DNA of 48,018 bases from an uncultured Rickettsiales bacterium (GTDB taxonomy: Bacteria > Pseudomonadota > Alphaproteobacteria > Rickettsiales > SXRF01). The stretch spans positions 1-48,018 of the forward strand of contig CAYPEF010000003.1 in assembly GCA_964409675.1 (NCBI GenBank), written 5' to 3'. Position numbers and translations under genes: made by a program. The notes below the pieces were generated by a model. The model searched no databases. It saw nothing but the letters and a program-made list of their open reading frames with translations, and was not told where the DNA came from. Below are positions 1 to 46,625 of the stretch, one piece after another (within the stretch, counting starts at the first letter, position 1; each line of letters starts with the position of its first letter).

Positions 1-49
<49 letters not shown>

Positions 50-146
50 AAGGATGATGCGTATTACTTTTCGAAGTTTACTCATCGCACCTTACATCCA
101 CTCACTTCGCCGCTTGCGCTTAGATGCTCTCTTCACAAAGTTAAAA

Positions 147-178
147 GCCCCGGAAGATTAATTTCTTCCGGGGCTTTT
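147..178 (+). terminator. Rho-independent terminator ~100 nt after the 16S 3' end
   Basis: 11-bp stem GCCCCGGAAGA / TCTTCCGGGGC, 6-nt loop TTAATT, followed by TTTT (175-178). Confidence 0.7.
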
Positions 179-240
179 CATATTTTATTTACTTTTTATG
201 GATTACACTCCAAAAAGATGTAAATTAATGTTAGCGATAT

Positions 241-870: not shown

Positions 871-1011
871 GTATTATAAGTTACTATAATTAATGAATAT
901 CGTCCAGCTTATCCAGAATATCCCTGATAAGTGAGAGATTCATCAAAATGTCACACATGGCGACAGGAAAACTGGTATTATAAACTATGATTTCATAGGT
1001 TTATTAAGAAA

Positions 1012-4798: not shown

Positions 4799-4833
4799 TG
4801 TTTCGTTTATAATCCCCGCACCATAAGGAGCCT

Positions 4834-5682: not shown

Positions 5683-5872
5683 AACCGCCCCGACAATCCG
5701 CCTGAGAACAGTTTTAGAGCACATTGTCATTGAAAATAATAATGTAAACAGCACGTTATCATTGTCTTTCTTTTAAGAAAATATGCGTAAAATTGCTTGC
5801 TCTTTAAGCATTTTTTACTTTTTTCTGCCCATAATAGCGGATTGAATTTAACCGAAGGCATCCCGCAACCAC

Positions 5873-7198
5873 ATGCAAGGGCAGGAAATCCCCCGTAATG
5901 GCGCACATCATGCGCAGCCTCCCGGCTGGTCGGCTGCGCCTGCGCGCGCGGCTGCGCATGAGGGAGAGTTCCTCGGACTGATCGATAAATCCATTCGCCA
6001 GTGCACGCTCAGCCACACATCCGGCGCGCTGTTGCTGGTGCATATCAGCAACCTCGCCATGGTGATCAGCGGCTATGGGCACGATGTTTCCGAAACCGTT
6101 ATCCACGATTTGATCTCCAAGCTGCGCGACCTGCTCTCCTCGCTCGATACCGTTGAACGCCTCCAGCGCGACCAGATCGGCATTATTCTCACCAACAGCT
6201 ACCCGGAAGAAACCGAGCGCACCGCCCAGCGCATCATCGACACACTGCAGAATTACGGGCGCGATAATTTCGCCACCGCATCGCTGCACATCATGGGCAC
6301 TATCGGCGCGGTACATTTCCCGTCCGAGGCGCAGCAGGCCACCGACGCCATGGATAAGGCGTACGTGGCGCTCTACAGCACCCAGTCATCGCTCTACCGC
6401 ACCTTCTCCGCCTCCAAGCGCGAGGCCGACCTTTGCCGCCAGCAGATGGGCCTGGCCAGCTATCTCTACAACGCCTATCAGGAGCAGCGCCTGCGGCTGG
6501 CCTGGCAGCCGATTCTGGAAGTCGCCACCGGCACCATCGCGCATTACGAGGCGCTGCTGCGCATCAAAAGCCTGAACGGCAAGATCAGCTCTGCGGGAGC
6601 GCTAATACCGGTGGCCGAGAAAATGGGCCTGATCGAAACCATCGACATCATGGTGCTGGAAAAAGTGGTGCAGGAGCTGCGCGACTCGCCCGATATCAGC
6701 ATCGCCTTCAATATCTCCAACCTCACCACCGAAAACCCAATCTGGCTGGAGGCGCTTACCAATTTAGTGGAGCAGACGCCCGACATCACCTCCCGCATGA
6801 TGGTGGAGATCACTGAAACTGCTGTGCAGCGGGATTTACGCCGCGCCGCCTATTTCGTGGCCAGCCTGCAATCCTTAGGCTGCCAGGTGGCGCTGGACGA
6901 TTTCGGTTCCGGCTACACCTCCTTCCGCCAGCTGAAAGCCCTCTCGGTGGATTTAGTGAAAATCGACGGCGTATTTATCAAGGACATCGCCCAGAACGCC
7001 GACAGCCGCTTTTTCGTCAAAACCCTGCTCGATTTCGCGCGCGGCTTCGGCCTGAAAACGGTGGCGGAATTCGTCGAAACCGGCGAAATCGCCAAAATCC
7101 TCATCGACATGGGCGTCGATTACCTGCAGGGCTACTACTTAGGCAAGCCCGAAAACCACCGCCGCTGGCTGAAAGAAGGCGAATACGGGGTGGAATGA
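5873..7198 (+). CDS. Cyclic-di-GMP phosphodiesterase: degenerate GGDEF domain plus EAL domain
   Basis: EAL signature HYEALLRIK, DDFGSGYTSF, and KIDG/EFVE motifs. In the upstream GGDEF-like domain, the GG[DE]EF position reads RLQRDQIG. Confidence 0.8.
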   Translation: MQGQEIPRNGAHHAQPPGWSAAPARAAAHEGEFLGLIDKSIRQCTLSHTSGALLLVHISNLAMVISGYGHDVSETVIHDLISKLRDLLSSLDTVERLQRDQIGIILTNSYPEETERTAQRIIDTLQNYGRDNFATASLHIMGTIGAVHFPSEAQQATDAMDKAYVALYSTQSSLYRTFSASKREADLCRQQMGLASYLYNAYQEQRLRLAWQPILEVATGTIAHYEALLRIKSLNGKISSAGALIPVAEKMGLIETIDIMVLEKVVQELRDSPDISIAFNISNLTTENPIWLEALTNLVEQTPDITSRMMVEITETAVQRDLRRAAYFVASLQSLGCQVALDDFGSGYTSFRQLKALSVDLVKIDGVFIKDIAQNADSRFFVKTLLDFARGFGLKTVAEFVETGEIAKILIDMGVDYLQGYYLGKPENHRRWLKEGEYGVE

Positions 7199-8628: not shown

Positions 8629-9165
8629 CTATTTATCCAAAATATTAATAAACGCCAATGATAATACCGCTTCATCCGCCTCCGAATCAGTGCTATCGCC
8701 CTCCGCCAGCCGTATTATTCTGCCAACCCCTGCCGCCCGGCCCGCCTGCACGTCGCTTTCCTTGTCACCGATGAGAATGCTTTCCCGCAGATCGATGCCA
8801 TGCTCGCGCGCTGCCTGCAATATCATCCCCGGTTGCGGTTTGCGGCAATGGCAATTCTGCCGGTATTCCCCCTGCCCCGCTTCCGGGTGGTGCGGGCAGT
8901 AATAGGTCTGGGTGATAGTGATATTCTGCTGCGCGAACTGCGCATGTATCCATGCGGTGAAAGCGTGGAATTGCGCCTCGCTGTAATAGCCGCGCCCGAT
9001 GCCCGCCTGGTTAGTAACGATAATAATCAAATATCCTTGCGCCTGCGCCGCTGCGCAAAGCGCGAAAATACCTTCTACGAACTCGCAATTCTCCGGCGTA
9101 TGCACATAGCCGTGATCGATATTGATCACCCCGTCGCGGTCAAGAAAAAGCGCTTTGCGTAACAC
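8629..9165 (-). CDS. gmhB: D-glycero-D-manno-heptose 1,7-bisphosphate phosphatase (HAD family)
   Basis: FLDRDGVIN (DxDG HAD motif I), TNQAGIGRGY, Zn-site CPHHP...CHCRKP, and GDKESD motif. Confidence 0.85.
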   Translation of the reverse strand: MLRKALFLDRDGVINIDHGYVHTPENCEFVEGIFALCAAAQAQGYLIIIVTNQAGIGRGYYSEAQFHAFTAWIHAQFAQQNITITQTYYCPHHPEAGQGEYRQNCHCRKPQPGMILQAAREHGIDLRESILIGDKESDVQAGRAAGVGRIIRLAEGDSTDSEADEAVLSLAFINILDK

Positions 9166-9168
9166 CGC

Positions 9169-10266
9169 TTAATTGACGAGGCTCAGGCGCACCTTGCGCT
9201 CCACCGGATCGGCGCGCGGCTCGGGCGTTTTGAGGTGGTAGAAATCGCGCCGTGTGAGCGAGGTCTGCGAATAACCGTGGCGGTCGAAGAAGACGATGCT
9301 GGAGCCCTGCGTTTCAAACGAAAACGGCACCCAGAGCAGGTCTTCCAGCGCCTGCATGATGCGCAAATGCTGCTCCGGCTTGGCGAAAAACAGCATGAAC
9401 CCGCCGCCGCCCGCCCCCAGCAGCTTGCCGCCGATGGCCCCGGCCTTGCGCGCGCGGGCATAAATATCGTCCACGAAATCCGGCGCGATACTGGCCGAGA
9501 GCGAGCGTTTCAGCTGCCACGTTTCATGCAGCATGCGCCCGAATTCGCAGATATCGCCCCGGGCGGTCACGCAGCCAACCGCCTCGTCCACCAGCTCGCG
9601 CATGGCATTAAGTTCCATCTTCTTGTCGCCGCGCGCCTGGCTTTGCATCTGGTCTTTAGCAATATTGGAGGCGGTGCGCGACACGCCGGTGAAAAACAGC
9701 AGGAAATGGCTCTGCAATTCCTCCAGCCGTTCCGGCGGCACAATCACCGGCTCGACGCAGAAATCGCCGTCCCGCTTGATGGTGACGCGGTTGAAACCAC
9801 CGAACGCCGTGCCGATCTGGTCCTGCACGCCGACATTCTCGCGCAGCACGTCGCGCTCGATATGCACCGCTTCGCAGGCCAGTTCGCGCTTGTTGCTCAT
9901 GCGCCCCTGCAGCGCATTGACCGCATTGAGCAGCCCCACGGTAAAGGCCGAGCTGGAGCCAAGGCCCGAGCGCGCTGGCAAATCGCCGCTATGGAGAATT
10001 TCCATGCCGTTATCGATATTCAGATGCTGCAGCACCGCCCGCACCGCCGGATGCTCGATTTCGGCATTGTCATGCACCTGCTCGATGCGCGACCAGACGA
10101 TACGCGAGCGCTCCTCGAAAAAGGGTGGCAGGTAGCGACAGGTGATATAGCAGTAATGGTTGATCGAGGTGGAAAGCACGCTGCCCCCGTGCTCTTGGTA
10201 CCAGGTATGGTAATCAGTGCCGCCGCCGAAAAATGAAACACGGTAGGGGGTACGGCTGATGATCAT
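9169..10266 (-). CDS. hddA: GHMP sugar kinase, D-glycero-alpha-D-manno-heptose 7-phosphate kinase type
   Basis: N-terminus SRTPYRVSFFGGGTDY typical of HddA-type kinases. GHMP motif PARSGLGSSSAF. Adjacent to gmhB. Confidence 0.8.
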   Translation of the reverse strand: MIISRTPYRVSFFGGGTDYHTWYQEHGGSVLSTSINHYCYITCRYLPPFFEERSRIVWSRIEQVHDNAEIEHPAVRAVLQHLNIDNGMEILHSGDLPARSGLGSSSAFTVGLLNAVNALQGRMSNKRELACEAVHIERDVLRENVGVQDQIGTAFGGFNRVTIKRDGDFCVEPVIVPPERLEELQSHFLLFFTGVSRTASNIAKDQMQSQARGDKKMELNAMRELVDEAVGCVTARGDICEFGRMLHETWQLKRSLSASIAPDFVDDIYARARKAGAIGGKLLGAGGGGFMLFFAKPEQHLRIMQALEDLLWVPFSFETQGSSIVFFDRHGYSQTSLTRRDFYHLKTPEPRADPVERKVRLSLVN

Positions 10267-11204
10267 GCGGTTTTCCTTGCTTCCTCGGTGAAATGATACG
10301 CATACATGCGGCCGAGACCTTCTTCCAGCGAAATCACCGGTTTCCAGCCAAGCGAAAACAGCTTGCCGGAATCCAGCATCTTGCGCGGCGCGCCATCAGG
10401 CTTTTCGGTATCGAGCGAGATGTTGCCGCGATAGCCGACGGTTTTCGCCACCAGCTTCGCCAATTCGCCAATGGTAATCTCCTGCATGGAGCCGACATTG
10501 ATGATTCCGGGATCATCGTAGCGCTCCATCAGGAACAGCAGCGCATCCGCCAGGTCATCGACATAGATAAACTCGCGCAGCGGCGTGCCGCTGCCCCAGA
10601 TCACCTCCTCCGGCGAAAGGGCGAGCTTCGCCGCGTGGAAGCGCTTCATCAGCGCCGGGATCACGTGGCTGGCGGCAGGGTCAAAATTATCATTGATGCC
10701 GTAGGTATTGGTCGGCATCGGCACCACCACCTGCATGCCATATTCGCGCGCATAGGACTGCGCCATGGTAATGCCGTTAATCTTGGCGGCGGCGTAGGCG
10801 ATATTGGTCGGCTCGATATAGCCGTTCAGGAATTCTGCTTCCGCCACCGGCTGCGGCGCGAGCTTGGGATAAGTGCAGGCGGAGCCGGGAAAGAGCAGCT
10901 TCCGCACGCCCGCCTTACGCGCCGCATCCATCACGTTCAGGTGCATTGCCGTATTGTCATAGATAAACTGGCCGGGGTACGTGCTGTTGGCGTGAATGCC
11001 CCCCACCCGCGCCGCCAGGTGGAATACATAGTCCGGCTTTTGTGCAGCCATGTAAGCATTCACCGCAGCCTGATCGCGCAATTCCAGCTCGGCATGCGCG
11101 GGCGCAAGAACCCGGCTAAACCCGCGCTCCGCCAGCAGGCGGCGCAAGGCGGAGCCGACCATCCCTGACGCGCCAGTGATGAGAATGGAATCGTTTTTCT
11201 GCAT
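10263..11204 (-). CDS. GDP-L-fucose synthase family 3,5-epimerase/4-reductase (Fcl/ColC-like)
   Basis: ILITGASGMVGSAL Rossmann motif, YAAAK catalytic dyad, PTNTYGINDNF. Start trimmed to MQKNDS (11204); the ORF-track extension to 11384 runs into the divergent spacer. Confidence 0.75.
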   Translation of the reverse strand: MQKNDSILITGASGMVGSALRRLLAERGFSRVLAPAHAELELRDQAAVNAYMAAQKPDYVFHLAARVGGIHANSTYPGQFIYDNTAMHLNVMDAARKAGVRKLLFPGSACTYPKLAPQPVAEAEFLNGYIEPTNIAYAAAKINGITMAQSYAREYGMQVVVPMPTNTYGINDNFDPAASHVIPALMKRFHAAKLALSPEEVIWGSGTPLREFIYVDDLADALLFLMERYDDPGIINVGSMQEITIGELAKLVAKTVGYRGNISLDTEKPDGAPRKMLDSGKLFSLGWKPVISLEEGLGRMYAYHFTEEARKTA

Positions 11205-11269
11205 GACGCGGTGAAAAAACCCCTTGTTTTTCTCTGATTTTGCCGATTTGTTAACCGGTAACGAATGCA

Positions 11270-12364
11270 TTGAGGTATAGCATGGAAGCCAAACGGGAGC
11301 AAACCATTCTAAATCACGCGCAAGCGATTGTTTTAGAAGCATCAAAGATTGCCTTGCGCGAGCGCGCCAAGCCGGAGCTTGCATGCACCGAAGAAAAACT
11401 GCTGGAGCAGCTTAATCTGCGCTCGGGAAGCAAGGAAGACCCGGTCACGCCCGATGCATTCCTGACCGCGAAAAAACCCGCCGACAACAGCACTGTCACC
11501 AGCGCCGATATACTGGCGCAGGACTATATGCAGAAAGAACTGCATAAAATAGTGCCGGAAGCCGCTTTCACCGGTGAGGAAAAAGGCGGCGATGCCGGCG
11601 CGGAAGCTTCCTTGCGCTGGGTAGCCGACCCGGTGGACGGCACCGGTAATTTCCTGCGCGGCAAATACCCGGAGCAGAATCCTAACCCTGAGCGCCGCCG
11701 CTTCGGCCACCTGCTGGCGCTGGAGGAAGCAGGCAATCCCGTGATCGCCGTCATGTTCTGCCCCGAGCCGGACGCGAGCGCCAAGCATTTGAACGGCACG
11801 CTCTACGTCGCCACCGCCCATACCCTCACCCGCATTATCCCGGTGCGCGAGGGGGAGATGAAAACGCAGGAAGCGGTTGAAGCGCAGCCCCTTCCCCGCC
11901 CTGCCGCACCACAAACGTTTTCATACGGGACCTTCGACCCCGCCCTGCTCGGCCCGAAACACGGCCAGCCGGATACTGCGCGGCAGGCGCTCACTACTGC
12001 CGCTGCCGAGCACGGAATGCAGGGGCGGGAGATGTTCTGCTTCGCCGCCGGGGCGGAAGACGTGCTGACCGGGCGCGGCGTATGCGCCAACGGCGTTAAT
12101 TGCGAGTGGGATTCCGCCGCACCGGCGCTGCTGTTTCAGCAAGCGGGTATACCCTTTGCCGAATACGCCAACGGCACCGGGCCGGACGGCAGCGCGCGCT
12201 TCGCCATGATCGCCGCGCCGGATACCACTTCTTTTGCCGCTGTAAACGATGCATATAATGCGCAGTTTGCCGGACGCACCGACGCGCCACCGTTGCTGCG
12301 CTTCGCCCATACCACGCCGCCCTGCGCCGCGCCCGCCTCCGCTGCCGCAGGCAGAAGTCGATAA
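11270..12364 (+). CDS. Inositol-monophosphatase / CysQ (PAP phosphatase) superfamily protein
   Basis: Metal-site motifs FTGEEKGG, WVADPVDGTGNF and CEWDSAAPALLFQQAG (WDxAAG). Longer than typical family members. Confidence 0.6.
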   Translation: MRYSMEAKREQTILNHAQAIVLEASKIALRERAKPELACTEEKLLEQLNLRSGSKEDPVTPDAFLTAKKPADNSTVTSADILAQDYMQKELHKIVPEAAFTGEEKGGDAGAEASLRWVADPVDGTGNFLRGKYPEQNPNPERRRFGHLLALEEAGNPVIAVMFCPEPDASAKHLNGTLYVATAHTLTRIIPVREGEMKTQEAVEAQPLPRPAAPQTFSYGTFDPALLGPKHGQPDTARQALTTAAAEHGMQGREMFCFAAGAEDVLTGRGVCANGVNCEWDSAAPALLFQQAGIPFAEYANGTGPDGSARFAMIAAPDTTSFAAVNDAYNAQFAGRTDAPPLLRFAHTTPPCAAPASAAAGRSR

Positions 12365-12429: not shown

Positions 12430-13398
12430 ATGCCGACCCCGGACATTGCCACCACCAAGCGCCTCTACCATTCCATGCAGCTCATCCGCCGCGTGGAGGA
12501 GCATATCTGCGAAGTCTATCACACCGACGCCATCAAAAGCCCGGTGCACCTCTCCATCGGCCAGGAATCGGTGGCCAGCGGCATCTGCGACGCCATGCAG
12601 GCCGACGACATGGTTTCCAACACCTACCGCTGCCACGCCACCTACATCGCCAAGGGCGGCGATTTGCGCCAGATGATGGCCGAGCTCTACGGCAAATCCG
12701 GCGGCTGCGCGGGCGGCAAGGCGGGCTCGATGCATTTGATCGACATGCCAAACGGCGTGATGGGCGCATCCGCTGTGGTCGGCACCACCGTGCCGGTAGC
12801 GGCGGGCTATGCGCAAGCGCTGCAGTGGGATGCCAAAAAAACCGGCAAGCAGCGCGCCGTAGTCGCCATCTGCGGCGATGGAGCCACCGAGGAAGGCGGC
12901 TACAGCGAAACGCTCAATTACGCCGCGCTGAAAAAACTCCCCATCCTGTTCGTGGTGGAAAATAACGGCTTCGCCATTCACACCCCCATCTTCCGCCGCC
13001 AGCCCAACTGGAATTTGCGCGCCCGCGTGGAAACCTACGGCATCCCCACCCAGTTTATCGATAACGGCGACGTCTTCACCATCCGCGAAGCCACCGCGCA
13101 GGCGCTCGCCCACATCCGTAACGGCGAAGGTCCGCAATTTTTAGAGTGCACCACCTACCGCTGGATGGAGCATGTCGGCCCTACCGACGACCACGACCAC
13201 GGCCCCTACCGCGATTTGAAGGAATACGCCCGCTGGAAGGAATCCGACCAGATCGCCAGACTCGCCAAAACCCTCGGCAAGGAAGCCGAAGCCATCAATT
13301 TGCAGGTAGAAGCCGAACTGCGCGACGCCGTGGATTTCGCCGAAGCCTCGCCCTACCCCTCTAATGCCGAACTGATGAGCCACGTCTATGCCGCATAA
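12430..13398 (+). CDS. ThDP-dependent 2-oxoacid dehydrogenase E1 component, alpha subunit-like
   Basis: E1_dh-type motifs: YRCHATYIAKG, GSMH, ICGDGATEEGGYSETLNYA (ThDP/Mg GDG-x-N motif), TYRWMEHVGPTDD. Confidence 0.85.
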   Translation: MPTPDIATTKRLYHSMQLIRRVEEHICEVYHTDAIKSPVHLSIGQESVASGICDAMQADDMVSNTYRCHATYIAKGGDLRQMMAELYGKSGGCAGGKAGSMHLIDMPNGVMGASAVVGTTVPVAAGYAQALQWDAKKTGKQRAVVAICGDGATEEGGYSETLNYAALKKLPILFVVENNGFAIHTPIFRRQPNWNLRARVETYGIPTQFIDNGDVFTIREATAQALAHIRNGEGPQFLECTTYRWMEHVGPTDDHDHGPYRDLKEYARWKESDQIARLAKTLGKEAEAINLQVEAELRDAVDFAEASPYPSNAELMSHVYAA

Positions 13399-14494
13399 CC
13401 TCGCCCTGAAAGAACGCGAACCCACCAAGGCCACGGATAACAAGCGCCTGATCCGCTACGTGGATGCCATTGCCGAGGCCTGCGCGCAGGCGATGGAAGA
13501 AGATGAGCGCGTATTCGTCTTCGGCCTTGACGTGGACGACCATAAATCCATCCAGGGCTCCACGGCGGGCCTCGTGGAGAAATTCGGGCCGGACCGCTGC
13601 TTCGGCACGCCGCTTTCGGAAGACGCGATGACCGGCATGGCCATCGGCGCGGCTATGGCAGGTTACCGCCCGGTGCATGTGCATATCCGCATGGATTTCA
13701 TGCTGCTGGCCATGAACCAATTGATCAATATCGCCGCCAAGGCGCATTACATGTATAATGGCCAGGTGCGCGTGCCTTTGGTGGTTCGCACCATGGTGGG
13801 CCGCTCCTGGGGTCAGGGCGCGCAGCATTCCCAGGCGCTGCATTCCATGTTCATGCATGTGCCGGGCCTTAAAGTGGTGGCCCCCTCCAACGCGCATGAT
13901 GCCAAGGGCTGCATGCTGGCCGCCATCCGCGATGATTCTCCCGTGATTTTCATGGAGCACCGCCTGCTCTGCAACATGCAGTCCTATGTGGACGAGGCAA
14001 TGTACGAAGTTCCCTTCGGCAAGGCGCGCGTGATGCATGAGGGCAAGGACGTCACCATCCTCGGCATCTCGCATATGGTGATTGAGGCCTTGCGCGCTTC
14101 GCATTACCTTGAAAAATCCGGCATCTCCGCCGAAGTGATCGACCCGATTTCCCTGCGCCCGCTGGATATGGATACCATCATTGCCTCCGTTAAAAAAACC
14201 GGCCGCTTATTGATCGTGGACAATGGCTGGCAGATGTGCGGCGCGGGCGCGGAGATCATGGCGCAGGTGTTCGAGCGGCTGCCGCAAGGCGTGAACGGCA
14301 AACCGGTCGCCATGAAGCGCATGGGCTTCGCCGATACGCCCTGCCCCACCACCAAGCCACTGGAAAACCTGTTTTACCCCAACGGCAAAACCATCGCCGA
14401 AGCCGCTTTCCGTCTGGTAGATCCAAATGGCAAGATCGACCTTCCTGCCGATCATGAGATCAAGGAAGTCGATGAATTCAAAGGGCCGTTTTAA
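13388..14494 (+). CDS. ThDP-dependent E1 component, beta subunit-like (transketolase pyrimidine-binding plus C-terminal domains)
   Basis: DERVFVFGLDV...KFGPDRCFGTPLSEDAMTGMAIGAAMAGYRPV... typical of E1 beta. 11-nt overlap with the alpha gene. Confidence 0.85.
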   Translation: MPHNLALKEREPTKATDNKRLIRYVDAIAEACAQAMEEDERVFVFGLDVDDHKSIQGSTAGLVEKFGPDRCFGTPLSEDAMTGMAIGAAMAGYRPVHVHIRMDFMLLAMNQLINIAAKAHYMYNGQVRVPLVVRTMVGRSWGQGAQHSQALHSMFMHVPGLKVVAPSNAHDAKGCMLAAIRDDSPVIFMEHRLLCNMQSYVDEAMYEVPFGKARVMHEGKDVTILGISHMVIEALRASHYLEKSGISAEVIDPISLRPLDMDTIIASVKKTGRLLIVDNGWQMCGAGAEIMAQVFERLPQGVNGKPVAMKRMGFADTPCPTTKPLENLFYPNGKTIAEAAFRLVDPNGKIDLPADHEIKEVDEFKGPF

Positions 14495-15216
14495 TGGCGC
14501 AGGCTGCCTCCCTCCTCTCCGCTGAAGACACGCTTCTCACCCAGTATGCGCGCGACGGCTATTGCATTCAGGAAAACGTGTTTTCCCCGCAGGAATGCGA
14601 TCATTTAATTGCGGCGGCGAAAGAATTGCCGGACTACCGGCAGGGCATCGTCAAGCCCGCCATGATGCCGCACCGCGTGGATGCCATCTTCCTGCACGCA
14701 CTGAAAAACCCCGCCATCGTCACCATGATGGAAAAGCTGGTGGGCGGCAAGGCAGCCGGCCTGCAAACCGAATTCTTCTACTGCAAGCCCGGCACGCGCG
14801 GCTTTTCCAACCATCAGGATAATTTCTTCGTGCAGGCCCCGTTCGGCGTGTTTGCCTCCGCGTGGATCGCGCTGACCGACACCTATAAGGAAAAAGGCGG
14901 CCTGATCGTCTATCCCGGCACACATGAAGAAGGCCTGCTGCCGGTGCGCCCGGTTGCCATAAGCAAGGATAGCGGCCAGGACCCCAATGCCAACAACGAA
15001 GAATGCGTCATCCCGCCTCGCTACCAGCCGCTGAACGCCTCCGTCCCCAAAGGCGCGGTGCTCTATATCCATGGCCACGTGGTGCACGGCTCCAACCCCA
15101 ACACCACCGATGAATGGCGCTACGTATTGCTCAATACCTACGTCAAAAAAGGCGAGCCCTTCCGCGCCGGTAAATATGCCCAGCGTGAAGAGGTGAATCT
15201 CTACCAATCCGCCTGA
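14494..15216 (+). CDS. Phytanoyl-CoA dioxygenase (PhyH) family Fe(II)/2-oxoglutarate oxygenase
   Basis: HxD motif in GFSNHQDNFF, distal His in IHGHVVHGSNPN. TAATG overlap with the E1 beta stop. Confidence 0.75.
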   Translation: MAQAASLLSAEDTLLTQYARDGYCIQENVFSPQECDHLIAAAKELPDYRQGIVKPAMMPHRVDAIFLHALKNPAIVTMMEKLVGGKAAGLQTEFFYCKPGTRGFSNHQDNFFVQAPFGVFASAWIALTDTYKEKGGLIVYPGTHEEGLLPVRPVAISKDSGQDPNANNEECVIPPRYQPLNASVPKGAVLYIHGHVVHGSNPNTTDEWRYVLLNTYVKKGEPFRAGKYAQREEVNLYQSA

Positions 15217-16504: not shown

Positions 16505-17557
16505 ATGCGCAATATCAGCTATACTTCGCGGTTTACCCGCCTTCTTACCAAGCGCCGCGTGTTCAAGGATTCGCCGCTTTGCGTGCTGGATGTGGGTGCG
16601 CGCGGCGGCCCGCAATCGCACTGGCCGCTCTATGACCGGGACATTAACGTGATCGGTTTCGAGCCGCATGCCGAGGAATGCAAGCGCCTCAACGGCATCG
16701 CCTCCTCCTTCAACGTTCCCTTCACCTGCTACCCCGTGGGGCTGGGGCGTGAGGAATTCACCGCTCGGCTTTATGAATATCCGAACAAGGCCGCCAACAG
16801 CCTGATACCGCCGCAGGGCGTGGAAAACCCTGCCTATACCGACATTCACGTCACGCGCTTCGACCGTTTTGCCGCCCAGCACAATATCAGCAAAGTCGAT
16901 TTCGCCAAGCTTGACGTAGAGCGCCATGAAATGGAGGCGCTGGAAGGCATGGAAGCGTGGCTGGGTGGCGATAACCCGATCTTCGGCCTCGAAATCGAGG
17001 TGCATTTCAAGCCCGATGGCGATACGCCGCTCTTCTCCGATATTGAACTATACCTGCGCCGCCACGGCTACCGCGTGGCGGATCTTGATATATTCAAAGC
17101 TTCCAGCAACGCCATGCCTGCCCCGGTGGCATGGGACCACCGCAATCATTTGAACGAGCCGATCCTAGGCCCCACCACCACCGGGGAAATGATCCACGGA
17201 GATGCGCTGTTCTTCCTGGATTTAAGCCGTGTCAACCCCGAGTGGATGCGTGCAAAAGGGCCACTTTATATCCTCAAATGCGCCTCTTTGTTTGAAGTGT
17301 ACGGCCTGCCGGATTGCGCGGCGGAGCTATTGCTCCAATACAGCGGCGAGGTGGAGCAGGTGATATCGGTGGACGAAGCCCTGAACGCGCTAGTGCCGGA
17401 CCATTTTGGCCAGGGACTCACCTATCAGCAATATTTGAAGACTTATCAAGAGCGCGTCGGACGCCCGGTCACGCCGGAAGCACCAGCCGCTGCCAGCCAA
17501 ACGGGAGAAAAATCTTCCATTGCCAAAGTCTTTCGCCTGATTAAAGGCGCTGCCTAA
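16505..17557 (+). CDS. FkbM-family SAM-dependent methyltransferase
   Basis: VLDVGARGG SAM motif, DFAKLDVERHEMEALEG (FkbM KxDxEGxE motif). AGGAG SD 7 nt upstream. Confidence 0.75.
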   Translation: MRNISYTSRFTRLLTKRRVFKDSPLCVLDVGARGGPQSHWPLYDRDINVIGFEPHAEECKRLNGIASSFNVPFTCYPVGLGREEFTARLYEYPNKAANSLIPPQGVENPAYTDIHVTRFDRFAAQHNISKVDFAKLDVERHEMEALEGMEAWLGGDNPIFGLEIEVHFKPDGDTPLFSDIELYLRRHGYRVADLDIFKASSNAMPAPVAWDHRNHLNEPILGPTTTGEMIHGDALFFLDLSRVNPEWMRAKGPLYILKCASLFEVYGLPDCAAELLLQYSGEVEQVISVDEALNALVPDHFGQGLTYQQYLKTYQERVGRPVTPEAPAAASQTGEKSSIAKVFRLIKGAA

Positions 17558-20485: not shown

Positions 20486-21422
20486 TTCGCAACTGCACAC
20501 CCTTGCCCCCGAACAGGTGGCGGCGAAGTTCGGCCTTAGCCGCGAACAACTGCTGAGTTTGCTGGGCAACCACGCCTGGCCGTCGCTTACCTACCGGGTA
20601 ATCAAGGGCGCGGAGCGCGACGACGTGATGCTCGGCATCCTGAAGCGTATCGATTCCGGCACCATGCGCATCGTCGGCGGCAATGACAACGCGGTCTGGG
20701 AACAGGGCTGGGGGGAAATCCTCACTCAAGTCAAGAACAAAGGATTTAGCCCTACCATCCTGCGCCCGCAATATTTCGACCATCACCGCATCATGCGCCT
20801 GAACGGCGAGTATGTGGACGGCGGTGACGCGCGGTTTGTCTACGAGTATGACCAGCTGCTGCGCCGCATCGTCTTTTCGCATTACCTGAAGGGTACTTCC
20901 AAGATCGTCGAACTCGGCTGCGGCACCGGCACCAGCCAGTTGCTGCTGGCCGAATTGCTGCCAAACGCGAAACTGGTGGCCAGCGACTGGGCAACGCCTT
21001 CGCAGGAGATCGTGCGCCAAATCGGCGCATACACCAAGCGTGACATTAAGCCGGTGAACTTCAACATGCTAACGCTGGAAGGCTGGGAAAACCTGGAGAT
21101 CGATGCGCAGTCCACCGTGCTGACCGTCCACGCGCTGGAACAGCTCGGTGGCGGCTGCACGGAGCTGCTGGACCGGCTGGTGAAGGCCAAGCCCAAAATG
21201 TGCCTGCATTTCGAGCCGATTGTGGAGCTGTACGACGAAAACGCCCTTTTCGATTACCTCGCCATCAAATACCACACCACGCGCAATTATTTGAGCAATT
21301 GGCTCAGCACCCTGCGCACACTTGCCAAGGCGGGCAAGGTGGAGATCATGGAAGAGCGCCGCCTTGCCTTCGGCGACCGGTATCACGAGGCTTATTCCGT
21401 TATCGCCTGGCACCCCTTGTAA
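20454..21422 (+). CDS. Class I SAM-dependent methyltransferase
   Basis: KIVELGCGTGTSQLLLAELLPNAKLVASD (motif I plus acidic motif II). Confidence 0.7.
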   Translation: MTYALKSSPADSQLHTLAPEQVAAKFGLSREQLLSLLGNHAWPSLTYRVIKGAERDDVMLGILKRIDSGTMRIVGGNDNAVWEQGWGEILTQVKNKGFSPTILRPQYFDHHRIMRLNGEYVDGGDARFVYEYDQLLRRIVFSHYLKGTSKIVELGCGTGTSQLLLAELLPNAKLVASDWATPSQEIVRQIGAYTKRDIKPVNFNMLTLEGWENLEIDAQSTVLTVHALEQLGGGCTELLDRLVKAKPKMCLHFEPIVELYDENALFDYLAIKYHTTRNYLSNWLSTLRTLAKAGKVEIMEERRLAFGDRYHEAYSVIAWHPL

Positions 21423-21441
21423 TCCCGGTAACAGCAGACGC

Positions 21442-33850: not shown

Positions 33851-34585
33851 TCAGCGCGCACCGGTTACGCTGATGATGGAACCGGAAACATACGACGCCT
33901 TCTCAGACAGCAGCCACGCAACCGCCTCCGCTACTTCATCCGCAGAGCCAAGGCGTCCCAGCGGGATTGAGGATTTTAAGCCCTCGAGCCGTTCAGGCGT
34001 GGCAGCCGCATGCGCATCGGTATCAATCACCCCTGGGCTGACCGCATTTACACGGATATTATAGGCCGCCAGTTCCCGCGCCAGTCCGATAGTAAGCGTA
34101 TTCACCGCTCCCTTGGAGGCCGCATACCCGGCAATGCGGTTGCCGCCGAATTTTGCCGCCTCGGAAGAAATATTAACAATAGCGCCGCCGCTTGCGCGCA
34201 TGCGCTTTACCGCCTCATGGCAGCACAGCATTACCCCGCCCACATTCACCGCCAGCGTCTGCATGAGATTGGCATAGCTTACATGCTCGGCGGTGCCGGT
34301 ATTGGGCAGGTTGACGGCGGCGTTATTCACCAGCGCCGTCACCGGCCCGAGCGAGGCGTCAATGCGGGAAAACAGGGCGATAATATCGGCTTCGCTGCCC
34401 ATATCCGCCTGCGCGGCGATCGCCTTGCCGCCGCTGCGCTCAATCTCCGCCACCACCGCCTCGGCCTGCGCACGCTGGCTATGGTAATTGACGCATACGG
34501 CGTAGCCTTCCCGCGCCAGCGTTTTCGCCACCGCCGCGCCGATACCACGGCTGGCGCCGGTGACGAGCGCAACCTTAGGCGGCAT
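33851..34585 (-). CDS. Classical SDR oxidoreductase
   Basis: ALVTGASRGIGAAV (TGxxxGxG), NNAA, YAASKGAV (YxxxK). Confidence 0.85.
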   Translation of the reverse strand: MPPKVALVTGASRGIGAAVAKTLAREGYAVCVNYHSQRAQAEAVVAEIERSGGKAIAAQADMGSEADIIALFSRIDASLGPVTALVNNAAVNLPNTGTAEHVSYANLMQTLAVNVGGVMLCCHEAVKRMRASGGAIVNISSEAAKFGGNRIAGYAASKGAVNTLTIGLARELAAYNIRVNAVSPGVIDTDAHAAATPERLEGLKSSIPLGRLGSADEVAEAVAWLLSEKASYVSGSIISVTGAR

Positions 34586-42689: not shown

Positions 42690-43706
42690 TTAGCGCGTCA
42701 AAAACTGGCTGCCGCTGGCTACGCGCTCGCGCCAGTAATCGAGCAGGTCCTGCATGGTTTTCTCAAACGGTATCTGCGGTTTCCAGCCGGTATGGGCTTC
42801 GAATTTAGTTGTGTCCGGCACCTGCAAATCGGCATCAATGGGGCGCAGGCGGTCGGGGTCAATCTCCACCTTGATTTCCCCTTTTTTCGGCGACAGCGAG
42901 ATCAGATGATTCAGCATCTCACGCACCGAGCAGGTGAACTGCCCGCCGATATTGTAATACGCCCCCGGCGTCGGGTTGATCGTCACCAGCATCACATACG
43001 CTCGCACCGCATCGCGCACGTCGGCAAAGGTGCGTAAAGAATCCAGGTTGCCTACCTTGATCACCGGCGCGATCATCCCCTGCTCGATCATGGCAATCTG
43101 CTTGGCAAACGTCGACTCGGCGAATACGTCGCCGCGCCTCGGGCCGGTATGGGTGAACATGCGGGTGGTCATCACCTTCATGTTGTAAGCCTCGGCATAG
43201 AAGCGCCCCACCAGGTCAGTGCCGACCTTGGAAATGGCGTAAGGAGACGCCGGGTGGAACGTGCATTCCTCGTTAATCGGCAGCTTCTCCTTCGGCACCC
43301 GTCCGAACACTTCCGAAGAGGCGCAGACATGGATCACCGCGTCCTGCTTGTAGGTTTTCAGCGCCTCCAGCACGCGGCTGGTGCCCTGGATATTGGTTTC
43401 ATACGTATCCAGCGGGGCGGTGAAGCTGGTTTTGGGGTAGCTCTGCGCGGCGAGGTGAAACACGTAATCCGGCAGGCACAGGCGCACCGCCTCGTTAATC
43501 GAGTCGGAATCGCGCAAATCGCCGTAGATCAGGTGAATGCGGTCTTTGCTGTTAATGCGCGGGATAAGGTGGGAGAGGTTATCCAAGGGGCTGCGCCAGC
43601 GCGTTAAACCGTAAATTTCCCAGTCAGTCTGCTCCAGCAGGAAATCCGCCAGGTGGGAACCGACCATGCCGGTAATGCCGGTGATGAATGCGCGTTTTTT
43701 GGTCAT
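42690..43706 (-). CDS. GDP-sugar 4,6-dehydratase / 4-reductase family SDR (Gmd/Rmd-like)
   Basis: AFITGITGMVGSHL, ASSEVFG, SPYAISK (YxxxK), FTHTGPRRGDVF, VGNLDSLRTFADVRD. Sits between hddC and the ColD-like gene. Confidence 0.65.
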   Translation of the reverse strand: MTKKRAFITGITGMVGSHLADFLLEQTDWEIYGLTRWRSPLDNLSHLIPRINSKDRIHLIYGDLRDSDSINEAVRLCLPDYVFHLAAQSYPKTSFTAPLDTYETNIQGTSRVLEALKTYKQDAVIHVCASSEVFGRVPKEKLPINEECTFHPASPYAISKVGTDLVGRFYAEAYNMKVMTTRMFTHTGPRRGDVFAESTFAKQIAMIEQGMIAPVIKVGNLDSLRTFADVRDAVRAYVMLVTINPTPGAYYNIGGQFTCSVREMLNHLISLSPKKGEIKVEIDPDRLRPIDADLQVPDTTKFEAHTGWKPQIPFEKTMQDLLDYWRERVASGSQFLTR

Positions 43707-43709
43707 TAG

Positions 43710-44426
43710 TCAGGCTGCGTTTTTCTTAATGAATGGTTTTAATTCTGCTTCCGCTCTCGCGTAATCGCTGGGGATGCCGATGTCAATAAAATACCCCTTC
43801 ACCTCATAGCCGTACATCGGGATGACATCCGCATAGGGCCGCTGATAATCGACCTCAAAGGAAAAAACTTCCGGCAGGCTCAGCCCGGCAAATGCGTCCG
43901 GCGAAATAATATAGCAGCCGGTGCTGATAAACCCTTCCCCCGCCCCGCCGGGATAGCAGAACGATACAATCCGTCCGTCCGGCGTGCAGCCTATTTCCCC
44001 GTAACGGCTGCAATCGGGCATATTGCGCAGTGCAACCGTCACTTTCGCCTGTTTTTCCTCATGTTCCTTCAGCATGGCGGGAATATCCGCCTCTACGAAT
44101 GTATCGCCGTTGGAGACATAGACCGGCTTCTCCGGCTGCAAGGCATCCAGCGCCAGCCTGATCGCCCCACCGGTGCCAAGCGGTGTGGATTCCTCCGTAT
44201 AGGTAATCGGCATCCCCTCAAACGCATCCCCGAAATAGGAGCGGATAACCGGGGCCAGATGGTGCAGCGACAGCAGCGCATGCGTTATCCCCTGCCCTTG
44301 CAGGTAGCGCAGGTAATGCGCCAGAAACGGCTCGCCCGCAATCGGGGCCATGGGTTTGGGAATATCCTCGCCGATGGCGGATTTCAACCGTGTGCCGAAT
44401 CCCCCGGCAAGGATAATGGCCTGCAT
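43710..44426 (-). CDS. hddC: D-glycero-alpha-D-manno-heptose 1-phosphate guanylyltransferase-type nucleotidyltransferase
   Basis: MQAIILAGGFGTRLKS...PKPMAPI, LGTGGAI. ~238 aa. Flanked by gmhA. Confidence 0.7.
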   Translation of the reverse strand: MQAIILAGGFGTRLKSAIGEDIPKPMAPIAGEPFLAHYLRYLQGQGITHALLSLHHLAPVIRSYFGDAFEGMPITYTEESTPLGTGGAIRLALDALQPEKPVYVSNGDTFVEADIPAMLKEHEEKQAKVTVALRNMPDCSRYGEIGCTPDGRIVSFCYPGGAGEGFISTGCYIISPDAFAGLSLPEVFSFEVDYQRPYADVIPMYGYEVKGYFIDIGIPSDYARAEAELKPFIKKNAA

Positions 44427-44431
44427 GCAGC

Positions 44432-45049
44432 TTACGCCATTGCCTTATCGGCTTTGGGCGCATATTCCGTGCCGAAAATGGCCTGCTCGATCAGCGAGCA
44501 ATAGATATGGCCGAGCAGCATATGGCATTCCTGGATTTTCGGCGTCTCGTTCGAAGGCATGCACAGGCAGAGATCGCACAGAGCCTTCATTTTCCCCCCG
44601 CTTTTACCGGTCTTGCCGATCACCGCGATTCCTTTAGCTTTCGCCGCCTCGATAGCCTTCAGGATATTGGGTGAATTGCCGGAGGTGGAGATGGCAATCA
44701 GCACGTCTCCCTCCTGCCCCACCGCTTCCACCTGGCGGGAGAAGGCGTTTTCAAACCCGTAATCGTTGCCGATGGCAGTCAGCGCCGACGTATCCACGGT
44801 CAGCGCCAGCGCGCACAGGCCAGGACGGTTAAAATTCAGCCGCGACACCAGCTCAGCGCTTAAATGCTGCGAATCCGCCGCCGAGCCGCCATTGCCGCAG
44901 AACAGGATTTTCCTGCCCGCCCGCAGTGCCCGCTCGCAGACATCGCTTACCTCCTGCACTTGCGCAAGCAGGTTCGTATCGGCCAGTAGCGCGTCGATGG
45001 TGGCGCGGGTTTTGCGGATTTCATCGGCAATCATCGGGTGCATGGACAT
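44432..45049 (-). CDS. gmhA: Phosphoheptose (sedoheptulose-7-phosphate) isomerase, SIS domain
   Basis: FCGNGGSAADSQHLSAELVSR, TAIGNDYGFENAFSRQV, ISTSGNSPNI. Confidence 0.85.
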   Translation of the reverse strand: MSMHPMIADEIRKTRATIDALLADTNLLAQVQEVSDVCERALRAGRKILFCGNGGSAADSQHLSAELVSRLNFNRPGLCALALTVDTSALTAIGNDYGFENAFSRQVEAVGQEGDVLIAISTSGNSPNILKAIEAAKAKGIAVIGKTGKSGGKMKALCDLCLCMPSNETPKIQECHMLLGHIYCSLIEQAIFGTEYAPKADKAMA

Positions 45050-45052
45050 TCC

Positions 45053-45853
45053 TTACAAGTAATAAACGAAATTGCGCCGCCCGATATGGTAGCAGCCATA
45101 GCCGATCATCATCGCCACCACTGATACTGCGCAGGATTTCAGCAGCATGGCAAGCGTCGGCAGCGTATGATGATAGACCAGCTCCACCGCCGGCTGCATC
45201 AGGATAACAATCGGGTTCCATTGCAAGATGGCCTGCACCCATTCCGGCACGGCGGCTACCGGATAAACAATGGCGCTGAACCAGAATAGCATGTTCATGG
45301 CCACCATAATCGCCTCGCCGATATCGCGCACATACGGCGCGGTGAAGGCAATGCCGATCGCCATTCCCATGACGGCGCCCAGCACCGGCAGGAAATAAAT
45401 GGGCCATAACAGCACATGCAGCGACACCGGCGCGCCCAGCAGGGTAACGAACCCCAGCATCGTTAGAAATGCGATGAAATATGTATAGACGTTGCGGAAT
45501 ACATCCGCGATCGGGAAAATGGTGGAGGAGATCATACAGCGCTTAAGCGTCTCCCCTTGCGCCAGCAGCGACGCGCTCGCCCCGATCATCGAGGAAGAAA
45601 TGAACCCCCACAGCGGCAGTGTGCAGATGATATAAAGCGTATAATCTGAATGCGGCATGCGCATAATCATCGGCATAATCACCGAATAAACAATCACCAT
45701 CGAAAGCGGCTGGAACAGCGTCCAGAGGATGCCAAGATAGGAATTGCGGTACTGGCGCGTCAACCCGCTTTTGGCGATCAGCACGGCGGTGCGCCAGTAA
45801 TAAGGATCAAGGAATATGGCGAATTGTCGCATACGGCTAGGCACTGGCTGCAT
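45053..45853 (-). CDS. wzm: ABC-2 type polysaccharide export permease
   Basis: ~266 aa with six hydrophobic segments, ABC-2 layout. 17-nt overlap with the upstream ATPase gene. Confidence 0.8.
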   Translation of the reverse strand: MQPVPSRMRQFAIFLDPYYWRTAVLIAKSGLTRQYRNSYLGILWTLFQPLSMVIVYSVIMPMIMRMPHSDYTLYIICTLPLWGFISSSMIGASASLLAQGETLKRCMISSTIFPIADVFRNVYTYFIAFLTMLGFVTLLGAPVSLHVLLWPIYFLPVLGAVMGMAIGIAFTAPYVRDIGEAIMVAMNMLFWFSAIVYPVAAVPEWVQAILQWNPIVILMQPAVELVYHHTLPTLAMLLKSCAVSVVAMMIGYGCYHIGRRNFVYYL

Positions 45854-46625
45854 GCCTCACCTCCCCGGGCAAAGCCGTCTCAGGCGGGCGCGGCAGGTGC
45901 AGAATATCCTCGCGGTACTGGCGGATGATCTCGCGCCCCGGCCCTTCATTGATAATACGCCCCTGGTGCATCAGCACGAAGCGGTTGCATATATTAACCA
46001 TCTCGTCATGGTTATGACTGATGATAATGGTAATGGCCGCATTGTTTACCTTAGCCTTGATCGCTTCCGCCGATTTATGGGTAAAGCCTGCATCGCCGGT
46101 GGCAAAAATCTCGTCCAGCAGTAGGATGTCCGGCTCCTGGAAAATCGCCGAGGAAAAAGCCAGGCGGGAAGCCATGCCGGAGGAATAGGATTTCAGCGGC
46201 AGGTCGATTTTCTCGCCAAGCTCGGAGAATTCGATCACCTTTTCTTCAATATCCCTGGAATATTCGCGCAGCTTCCCGCGATAGGCATAGGTGAGCTTGA
46301 TATTGCCCCGTCCTGACACTTCGCTTTCAAACCCCGCCCCCATCTCGATCAACGGCACGATGGTGCCTTCCACATGCCGCACCCCGGCATGGATCGGGTA
46401 ATTGCCGGAAATTACTTTCAATAACGAAGATTTACCGCTGCCGTTCGCCCCCAGCAGGGCAATGCGGTCGCCAGCTTTGGCTTCAAACGAAACATCCTGT
46501 AAAATGGGAATGCGCACTGGGCGCAGCGAAGCGCGGCGGGTGAACCACTGCCGAAGCGTCGCCGCACGTGCATGCGTATCGATTCCGTAAACGGAAATAT
46601 TCTGAAGCTGTATCAGTGCGGACAT
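45837..46625 (-). CDS. wzt: Polysaccharide export ABC transporter ATP-binding protein (NBD only, no C-terminal carbohydrate-binding module)
   Basis: Walker A GANGSGKSS, signature YSSGMASRL, Walker B ILLLDE, H-loop SHN. 262 aa. Confidence 0.85.
   Translation of the reverse strand: MSALIQLQNISVYGIDTHARAATLRQWFTRRASLRPVRIPILQDVSFEAKAGDRIALLGANGSGKSSLLKVISGNYPIHAGVRHVEGTIVPLIEMGAGFESEVSGRGNIKLTYAYRGKLREYSRDIEEKVIEFSELGEKIDLPLKSYSSGMASRLAFSSAIFQEPDILLLDEIFATGDAGFTHKSAEAIKAKVNNAAITIIISHNHDEMVNICNRFVLMHQGRIINEGPGREIIRQYREDILHLPRPPETALPGEVRHAASA

Follow-up and report, generated by a model that had tools for sequence, protein, structure and literature searches.

The stretch of DNA analysed here (the window: 48,018 nucleotides of contig CAYPEF010000003.1, from an uncultured Rickettsiales bacterium) carries, within a surface-glycan locus, two adjacent genes for the α and β subunits of a thiamine diphosphate (ThDP)-dependent E1 enzyme (Table 1). 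This pair is a stand-alone E1, and not the E1 of a pyruvate dehydrogenase (PDH) or acetoin dehydrogenase. It is probably a ThDP enzyme of heterotetramer type that works without E2, like AviB1/AviB2 and Pau11/Pau12. By analogy with known sugar-branching systems, we favour the view that it uses pyruvate to place an acyl branch on C4 of GDP-3,6-dideoxy-4-keto-heptose.

The E1 pair is not part of a dehydrogenase complex

The open reading frame (ORF) coordinates and direct reading of the sequence bore out the gene anatomy given by an earlier sequence-only reading. The E1α and E1β genes overlap by 11 nt, and the ThDP motif of E1α is intact, with GDGATEEG followed by ENN about 27 residues on. The junctions described downstream of E1β are exact as well: its TAA stop (14492-14494) shares one base with the ATG of the PhyH gene at 14494 (TAATG), and the TGA stop of PhyH (15214-15216) likewise overlaps the ATG of the following gene (15216) by a single base (TGATG). 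As the gene 3' of the FkbM methyltransferase is convergent, the five genes from E1α to FkbM, perhaps together with the Inositol_P phosphatase, form one operon.

Both subunits scored below the cut-offs of the PDH families. E1α gave 273 bits against NCBIfam PDH_E1_alph_y (cut-off 394), and E1β gave 305 bits against NCBIfam PDH E1β (cut-off 321) and 292 against another model (cut-off 454). No lipoyl, E2 (2-oxoacid_dh) or E3 (pyridine-nucleotide-disulfide) domain was found by Pfam in the 45 window ORFs, and tblastn with five E2/E3 proteins gave no match in the window or in 84 related loci (1.38 Mb). The earlier claim that the window has no lipoyl-E2 or E3 gene thus held in both searches. We conclude from the sub-cut-off PDH scores and from the absence of E2/E3 in the window and related loci that the pair is not a complex E1.

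Profiles for other ThDP enzymes fitted poorly. Transketolase and 1-deoxyxylulose-5-phosphate synthase (DXS) profiles gave only 26-32 bits, compared to 196 for E1_dh. A TPP_enzyme_C match inside E1α was marginal (28.6 bits), the TPP_enzyme_N/M/C architecture of the single-chain fold was not seen, and no YerE-type gene was found in the window.

The closest solved structures are PDH E1 subunits (α, 1e-45; β, 4e-65; PDB), the best NCBIfam matches are also to PDH E1, relatives are named AcoA or PDH, and homologues in Coxiella have been interpreted in that way (PMC5423948). An ordinary catabolic PDH or acetoin dehydrogenase E1, with its E2/E3 elsewhere in the genome and present in the glycan locus by chance or horizontal transfer, would suit these matches. 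We regard it as most improbable, as it is contradicted by every test that was run: by the scores, by the lack of E2/E3 in all 84 loci, by a 200/200 separation in the tree and an extended β C-terminus (both described below), and by a placement in heptose-sugar operons that is conserved across Alpha- and Gammaproteobacteria.

Phylogeny and signature motifs place the pair with Pau11/Pau12

A tree was built from concatenated α and β sequences (33 taxa, 646 columns; Kimura distances, neighbour joining, 200 bootstraps). AviB1/AviB2, AlmDI/DII and the branched-chain 2-keto acid dehydrogenase (BCKDH) are absent from it, and the link to AviB runs via Pau11/Pau12, which are stated to be AviB homologues (PMC4753412). 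The E1 family of the heptose loci was monophyletic (200/200). A second split, also at 200/200, separated this family, an Azospirillum oryzae-type clade, Pau11/Pau12 and a Streptomyces griseofuscus relative from seven pairs linked to E2/E3 or a lipoyl protein. Aco-type pairs of Enterococcus and Klebsiella, which come with E2/E3, were separated from the window pair at the same support. The pair groups with AviB homologues and not with PDH or acetoin E1s, and the likeness to AviB that the sequence-only reading had proposed was therefore upheld.

The Pau12 reference was found via a search with a Streptomyces plasmid homologue, and its identity was taken from the UniRef name. Its locus is the paulomycin cluster: Pau11 lies immediately upstream, and an aldo-keto reductase, an acyltransferase, an EryCIII-like glycosyltransferase and a hexose 2,3-dehydratase are present. 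The Streptomyces albogriseolus plasmid homologue (L084) does not lie in a sugar cluster and was excluded as a reference. Among plasmid records, identity to the window pair was 52-57% for three Azospirillum plasmids that belong to the same family, 41% for A. oryzae and <=40% for nearly all others; one partial-length Streptomyces plasmid match reached 42%, and E2/E3-linked operons were 32-39% identical.

Two sequence signatures followed the tree. The motif YRWxEHVGP (ATYRWxEHVGP) in the α subunit, TYRWMEHVGP in the window, is common to the family and Pau11, and complex E1s carry YRYxGHSMSDP at this position. The β subunit ends in a tail, [FYW]xGP[FYW], which was seen in all family members (63/63), in most Pau12-type (116/120) and A. 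oryzae-type (118/120) proteins and in none of the E2-linked ones (0/7). It extends 18-37 residues past the ends of E2-linked β subunits (14429-14494 in the window), reads EFKGPF here and GFQGPF in Pau12, and occurs in loci L002-L081, L082, L083, L085, L086 and L094. The canonical β C-terminus contacts the E2 binding domain, as seen in the Bacillus stearothermophilus structure of E1 with the peripheral subunit-binding domain. The tail may obstruct the site where E2 binds, or extend as far as the active site, and its presence could be used as an easy rule for annotating stand-alone E1s.

The window pair shares with PDH and acetoin E1s (32-46% identity) the fold, the ThDP motif, the active-site His of the α YR..H motif and the glutamate of β PLSE. 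It differs from them in having no E2/E3, in falling below the family cut-offs, in its longer β C-terminus, in its separate clade and in its glycan context.

Conserved neighbours point to a GDP-heptose acceptor

The surface-glycan locus spans 8.6-47 kb of the window and holds GDP-heptose genes, a CDP-glucose branch, glycosyltransferases, methyltransferases and a Wzm/Wzt exporter. Genes that form nucleoside diphosphate (NDP)-4-keto-sugars had been claimed for the locus of the E1 pair, and they are there: a heptose 4,6-dehydratase, a C3-dehydratase and a CDP-glucose 4,6-dehydratase were all identified. The GDP-heptose genes lie at two sites, with GmhB and an HddA-like kinase at 8.6-10.3 kb and the remainder at 41.3-45 kb. 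The C3-dehydratase has a catalytic His (YSHHITT) where aminotransferases have the Schiff-base Lys. The Cys-rich stretch of RfbH is gapped in its alignment (NCBIfam RfbH, 396 bits; cut-off 423) and no E3 reductase was found in the window ORFs, and so it should act like ColD.

A protein search gave 7160 matches at E<=1e-20; the best 120 were 61-100% identical, and were mostly unnamed or labelled 'acetoin/pyruvate dehydrogenase'. When a single genome was scanned for each species, the family was encoded in at least 571 of them. Eighty of these loci, from Alphaproteobacteria (Rickettsiales-like, Rhodospirillales, Xanthobacteraceae, Bradyrhizobium) and Gammaproteobacteria (Legionellales, Coxiellaceae), were kept for neighbourhood counts, which used gene maps drawn from all ORFs with shadow filtering and a thresholded tblastn census. 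E1β accompanied E1α in 78/80 loci. A C3-dehydratase was found directly 3' of E1β in 27/80, usually followed by a Cj1427-type C4-dehydrogenase, and a C3-dehydratase, a Cj1427-like C4-dehydrogenase or a heptose 4,6-dehydratase lay within 10 kb (<=10 kb) in 53/80. Where full flanks were available, 33 of 41 loci had a 4-keto-heptose-forming enzyme or GDP-heptose genes. Homologues of the window's HddA-like kinase occurred in 31/80 loci, and a homologue of its Fcl-like short-chain dehydrogenase/reductase (SDR) adjoined E1α in 24-26.

Two contexts recurred. In type A (about 27 loci and the Azospirillum plasmids) the order was E1α-E1β-'DegT'-SDR-HddC-HddA, with GmhB nearby. The 'DegT' gene is a ColD orthologue, as shown by the match of the Azospirillum lipoferum protein to 2GMS (3e-121) and by the catalytic His in 34/35 members; the ColD match and the replacement of Lys by His ruled out a sugar-aminating aminotransferase as the gene after E1β. 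The SDR of this context (SDR320) matched PDB 6VO6 (8e-114), which we take to be Cj1427, the GDP-heptose C4-dehydrogenase. The cassette E1α-E1β-ColD-Cj1427-like was seen in L046, L048, L055, L082, L085 and about 25 others. In type B (Legionellales-like) the order was heptose 4,6-dehydratase-GmhA-HddC, then further on an Fcl-like gene, followed by E1α-E1β on the opposite strand. Type B loci often had a second HddA/HddC/GmhA/GmhB set, a transaldolase, a GFO oxidoreductase and a UDP-glucose dehydrogenase (UGDH) nearby.

From gene content, these neighbourhoods point to a GDP-heptose-derived acceptor, predicted to be GDP-3,6-dideoxy-4-keto-heptose in the window and GDP-3-deoxy-4-keto-heptose in many relatives. 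The sequence-only reading had the pair transfer a C2 unit from pyruvate onto a 4-keto-6-deoxy intermediate of the CDP or GDP branch. The genes for a 4-keto acceptor are indeed in the locus and this part of the proposal stands, but the neighbourhoods favour GDP-heptose over the hexose intermediates that it named.

The same branching chemistry could act instead on CDP-4-keto-6-deoxyglucose or its 3-deoxy product, to give a yersiniose-like sugar in this window. The CDP-glucose branch is genuine, with bona fide matches for glucose-1-phosphate cytidylyltransferase (310 bits, cut-off 300) and CDP-glucose 4,6-dehydratase (391 bits, cut-off 278). The 436-aa C3-dehydratase matches the CDP-specific RfbH as well as ColD, and CDP-3,6-dideoxy-4-keto-glucose is the proven acceptor of YerE (PMC9306805). 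However, the E1 family at large does not keep the CDP genes (only ~27% cross-hits), and the CDP branch has a TylC3-like C-methyltransferase of its own. In addition, the C3-dehydratase lies in one block with the heptose 4,6-dehydratase, HddC and GmhA, and lacks both the RfbH Cys-rich Fe-S stretch and a reductase in the window. A CDP-hexose acceptor is thus quite unlikely.

It is also unlikely, if somewhat easier to entertain, that the pair works alone as a ThDP decarboxylase or carboligase on the way to a non-sugar unit (an acyloin, aldehyde or acyl group), later attached to the glycan as a substituent. E2-free relatives lie beside a nonribosomal peptide synthetase (NRPS) C-domain and acyl carrier proteins (ACPs) in S. 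griseofuscus, a Sphingobium relative lies beside a lipoyl-domain protein and an AMP-ligase, and the PhyH, methyltransferase and 426-aa proteins of the window operon could tailor such a unit. Across the family, though, no carrier protein, ligase or acyltransferase is conserved, and the partners that are conserved make GDP-4-keto-heptose and nothing else.

The weak transketolase and DXS matches raise a further alternative, in which the pair adds a C2 unit to an aldose phosphate to give a heptulose or octulose phosphate for the GmhA/HddA/GmhB/HddC route. The Legionellales-type pair adjoins a transaldolase and a second GmhA/HddA/GmhB/HddC set, which resembles the logic of the lincosamide octose. 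We consider this very unlikely, because E1 profiles fit far better than those of transketolase or DXS, because the tightest and most frequent neighbours (C3-dehydratase and C4-dehydrogenase) act after nucleotide activation, and because the sister clade acts on NDP-sugars. These three alternatives are less consistent with the conserved partners than acyl transfer to a GDP-4-keto-heptose.

Predicted pathway to a branched heptose

The sequence analysis shows gene identities, the absence of E2/E3, phylogenetic position, motifs and conserved neighbourhood; the donor, the acceptor, the branch position and all later steps we infer. In the proposed pathway, GmhA, the HddA-like kinase, GmhB and HddC would convert sedoheptulose-7-phosphate into GDP-D-glycero-D-manno-heptose, from which the 4,6-dehydratase and the ColD-type C3-dehydratase would make GDP-3,6-dideoxy-4-keto-heptose. 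The E1 pair would act on a 2-keto acid, with pyruvate as the simplest candidate, and its decarboxylation would leave an acyl-anion equivalent bound to ThDP. This would then be passed to the C4 carbonyl of the GDP-4-keto-heptose made by the same locus, and not to lipoamide, giving GDP-4-C-acetyl-3,6-dideoxy-heptose. An SDR may reduce the acetyl branch to 1-hydroxyethyl. Enzymes such as PhyH and FkbM, with the 426-aa protein as a further candidate, may tailor the sugar in a lineage-specific way, before glycosyltransferases and Wzm/Wzt would place it on the surface.

Acyl addition to a GDP-4-keto-heptose is predicted because of the published enzymology of the acceptor, the analogy with YerE and the genetics of Plm8/Plm9 and AviB1/B2. 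A heptose 4,6-dehydratase and a pyridoxal phosphate (PLP)-dependent C3-dehydratase make GDP-3,6-dideoxy-4-keto-heptose in vitro, and Cj1427 with the C3-dehydratase makes GDP-3-deoxy-4-keto-heptose (PMC10440746, PMC10680097). The CDP-3,6-dideoxy-4-keto-hexose used by YerE is analogous to these acceptors, and relatives of YerE install C2-C8 acyl branches from 2-keto acids in the sugars of lipopolysaccharide (LPS) and lipooligosaccharide (PMC9306805). Plm8/Plm9 and AviB1/B2 have been tied genetically to pyruvate-derived C2 branches (PMC4802897, PMC4753412).

Several observations weigh against this pathway. The genes that would make the acceptor lie 27-31 kb away from the E1 operon in the window, and 18/80 family loci have no heptose or 4-keto gene within 10 kb (<=10 kb). 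The family is only 43-45% identical to Pau11/Pau12, and is a sister clade to them that is not nested within. The S. griseofuscus protein, the closest Streptomyces relative through which Pau12 was reached and 73% identical to it, adjoins an NRPS condensation protein and ACPs and not sugar genes, so membership of the E2-free superclade alone does not imply sugar branching. The outgroup sample was small (7 pairs, no BCKDH) and the tree was built by neighbour joining only. To our knowledge, there is no biochemical or structural-glycan evidence for members of the clade, and we know of no report of a 4-C-branched heptose in these bacteria; nothing relevant emerged when the literature was searched for heptose, thiamine and O-antigen together. 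Finally, the roles of AviB1/B2 and Plm8/9 rest on genetics and not on reconstitution.

We also considered the E1 pair as a recycler of electrons or 2-oxoglutarate for the C3-dehydratase or Cj1427-like enzyme. This was rejected, as a ColD-type enzyme needs no reductase and the E1 has no redox cofactor. The two neighbouring enzymes may themselves be metabolically coupled, since the C3-dehydratase releases 2-oxoglutarate from glutamate and a Cj1427-type dehydrogenase re-oxidises its bound NADH with 2-oxoglutarate (PMC10680097).

Relation to known systems

Like the window pair, AviB1/AviB2 (avilamycin) and Pau11/Pau12, which are the same as Plm8/Plm9 (paulomycin), consist of an adjacent E1_dh protein and transketolase-like β subunit with no E2/E3, and are set among deoxysugar genes that give a 4-keto acceptor. 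They have been proposed to add a C2 branch derived from pyruvate to an NDP-4-keto-sugar. The α motif, the β FxGP[FY] tail and the superclade are shared with Pau11/Pau12. The window family differs in forming a separate, well-supported clade, in its Gram-negative hosts and cell-surface glycan loci, and in its predicted acceptor, a GDP-heptose derivative compared to the dTDP- or UDP-hexose or pentose of AviB/Pau. In every AviB/Pau-type feature that could be tested the pair agrees with these enzymes, yet it belongs to a distinct Gram-negative clade, for which another nucleotide sugar is predicted.

The predicted logic is also that of YerE, ErwE and MyGE (yersiniose, erwiniose and caryophyllose), in which a ThDP acyl anion from a 2-keto acid is added to C4 of a 3,6-dideoxy-4-keto nucleotide sugar for LPS, the acceptor being the product of a 4,6-dehydratase and a C3-dehydratase (PMC9306805). 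These enzymes are single-chain, acetolactate-synthase-like flavoproteins with a CDP-hexose acceptor, in contrast to the E1 α2β2 architecture and predicted GDP-heptose acceptor of the window pair, which is not a member of the YerE family because its fold is unrelated. In the literature searched, the branching enzymes described for Gram-negative glycans are all of the YerE type, with the acetolactate synthase fold (PMC4753412, PMC9306805), and the earlier view that the pair would be an unusual route for a cell-surface glycan agrees with this literature.

The Campylobacter jejuni GDP-3,6-dideoxy-heptose and Cj1427 pathways have an orthologous heptose 4,6-dehydratase, a ColD-type C3-dehydratase and GmhA/HddA/GmhB/HddC, for which the window has a GmhB above its cut-off and best matches below cut-off for GmhA (narrowly), HddA and HddC (both by far), and the Cj1427-type enzyme is shared with relatives of the window pair. 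They end with an epimerase and C4-reductase and have no ThDP enzyme (PMC10440746, PMC10680097), whereas in the loci studied here an E1 pair is inserted beside such genes.

Coxiella burnetii has E1-type genes, CBU_0692/CBU_0693 (with CBU_0686), in its O-antigen region together with GmhA and a reversed-domain HldE (PMC5423948, PMC5843353). These LPS-region 'pyruvate dehydrogenases' have been read as part of fatty-acid or acetyl-CoA metabolism (PMC5423948). The Azospirillum oryzae plasmid locus (L086, 3723-15489) holds the sister E1 clade (41-45% identity) with a reversed-domain HldE, GmhA, SDRs, two DegT genes and a radical SAM enzyme. Its HldE has a cytidylyltransferase-like N-terminus and a PfkB C-terminus, as described for Coxiella CBU0678, which suggests by analogy that the Coxiella genes belong to the A. 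oryzae-type sister clade; CBU_0693 was not among the best 120 matches to the A. oryzae-type β subunit.

The E2-free clade occurs in Rhodospirillales, Rickettsiales-like bacteria, Legionellales/Coxiellaceae and other bacteria. We suggest tentatively that this clade, annotated as PDH or acetoin dehydrogenase in at least 571 species and with a sister clade that would include Coxiella CBU_0692/0693, makes C-acyl-branched heptoses. Examples might be 4-C-acetyl- or 4-C-(1-hydroxyethyl)-3-deoxy- and 3,6-dideoxy-heptose, a class of surface sugar not yet described. If so, thousands of 'pyruvate/acetoin dehydrogenase E1' genes in Gram-negative glycan loci would be reassigned to sugar C-branching, and Azospirillum, Legionellales, Rickettsiales-like symbionts and possibly Coxiella, for which LPS is the defining virulence factor, would be expected to have a new family of branched higher-carbon sugars in their LPS or capsules. 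The proposal is directly testable, as enzymatic synthesis of the acceptors has been achieved by the Raushel laboratory and two hosts, A. lipoferum 4B and A. thermophilum, are in culture. Such experiments would provide the first tractable in vitro system for an AviB-type reaction, so far known from genetics only, and a second, unrelated ThDP scaffold for tertiary-alcohol acyloin formation in biocatalysis.

Other genes of the window and of related loci

Table 1. Features of the E1 operon and of the surrounding glycan locus (window positions).
Feature	Position	Strand	Evidence
GmhB heptose 1,7-bisphosphate phosphatase	8629..9165	-	TIGR00213, 198 bits (above cut-off 150)
HddA-like GHMP sugar-phosphate kinase	9169..10266	-	GHMP_kinases_N/C; best NCBIfam match HddA, 143 bits (far under cut-off 600)
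GDP-L-fucose-synthase-like SDR (epimerase/reductase), divergent from the E1 operon	10263..11270	-	NCBIfam GDPFucSynFcl, 398 bits (cut-off 500)
Inositol-monophosphatase/CysQ-family phosphatase, upstream of E1α	11282..12364	+	Pfam Inositol_P 2e-19; weak HisN and CysQ matches
E1α subunit (ThDP/diphosphate-binding), E2-free, probably AviB1/Pau11-type	12430..13398	+	Pfam E1_dh 7e-58; motifs; tree
E1β subunit, 22-aa C-terminal tail ending EFKGPF	13388..14494	+	Pfam Transket_pyr 6e-35, Transketolase_C 1e-30
PhyH-family Fe(II)/2-oxoglutarate dioxygenase; accessory tailoring enzyme, coupled to E1β in translation	14494..15216	+	Pfam PhyH 1.4e-25
426-aa protein, N-terminal coiled coil of ~110 aa	15216..16496	+	no family match
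FkbM-family methyltransferase, last operon gene	16505..17557	+	Pfam Methyltransf_21 1e-15, TIGR01444
Classical SDR, speculative candidate acyl-branch reductase (YerF/Pau7 role)	33851..34585	-	adh_short 7e-52
ColD/RfbH-family PLP/pyridoxamine phosphate C3-dehydratase, not an aminotransferase, 436 aa	41311..42621	-	PDB 3BCX 5.6e-83, ColD 2GMS 1.4e-82
GDP-D-glycero-D-manno-heptose 4,6-dehydratase	42690..43706	-	PDB 7US5 3.5e-107; Gmd model only 177 bits (cut-off 415)
HddC-like heptose-1-phosphate guanylyltransferase	43710..44426	-	NF049965 best match, 187 bits (cut-off 300)
GmhA sedoheptulose-7-phosphate isomerase	44432..45049	-	TIGR00441, 205 bits (cut-off 209); PRK13936, 211 bits
Wzm/Wzt-type ABC exporter of the glycan	45053..46625	-	NCBIfam KpsM/Wzm and Wzt/TagH matches

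The other genes of the operon were poorly conserved with the E1 pair. The sequence-only reading had PhyH hydroxylating the sugar after the E1 step, but a PhyH homologue lay within 10 kb (<=10 kb) in only 7/80 family loci, and directly 3' of E1β in one (L010). Given this rarity, a hydroxylation tied to the E1 reaction is a lineage-specific guess. Homologues of the 426-aa and FkbM genes were not found in the 80 family loci by the tblastn census, and the Inositol_P phosphatase, whose start was adopted from the gene call in locus L001, had a homologue in 1/80. The label 'sulfotransferase-like' given earlier to the 426-aa protein was not confirmed: it rests only on a P-loop-like GRTGNRWL seen by eye, and the protein had no Pfam, NCBIfam or PDB match, even at a relaxed E<=5-10. 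Its single-sequence AlphaFold model had a pLDDT of 50, with only helix 2-114 confident. A role of the phosphatase on 3'-phosphoadenosine 5'-phosphate would fit if the 426-aa protein were a sulfotransferase; both assignments are unverified, and neither gene is conserved with the family.

Homologues of the candidate acyl-branch reductase were found by ORF clustering in 13 family loci at >=33% identity, in some beside E1α or just after E1β, and in 5/80 loci under a stricter tblastn search (>=40% identity).

Six loci of the Legionellales/Coxiellaceae type (L012, L015, L018, L025, L033 and L035) carried a second block, SDR-SDR-UGDH-SDR-GFO-HddA-HddC-GmhA2-GmhB-transaldolase (e.g. L033:4782-13313). 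A dedicated transaldolase recalls the lincosamide octose pathway (LmbR/N/P/K/O), and the block may be a route to a higher-carbon sugar. On the A. lipoferum 4B plasmid AZO_p6 (L082; 15412-17677 and 8826-10097), methylthioadenosine phosphorylase and methylthioribose-1-phosphate isomerase genes lay within the glycan locus, beside the E1-ColD cassette, with a fused NTP-transferase-HAD phosphatase (HddC-GmhB-like) and several sulfotransferase-domain genes nearby.

The CDP-glucose branch of the window (27846-30971, -; 23391-25502, +) is complete, with the cytidylyltransferase, the 4,6-dehydratase and the TylC3-like C-methyltransferase, and is accompanied by a CmcI-type methyltransferase, a short SDR and an epimerase that resembles RmlC. 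From its gene content, the branch predicts a second, C-methyl-branched 6-deoxyhexose in the same glycan. A 680-aa ORF in the middle of the locus (21322-23364, +) has a DUF772 transposase domain at its C-terminus, and may be an insertion sequence remnant or a fusion, left where recombination joined two sugar modules. A NodU-like carbamoyltransferase (31108-32727, +) and an Acyl_transf_3 O-acyltransferase (35753-36820, +) indicate that the glycan is probably also carbamoylated and O-acylated. The left flank (1-7198) contains housekeeping genes (for GshA, RsmE, the prenyltransferase UbiA and a GGDEF-EAL protein) as well as two ORFs that matched no family, and together they place the boundary of the glycan locus near 7.2 kb. 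The first 3 kb of the window has a lower GC content (49-56%).

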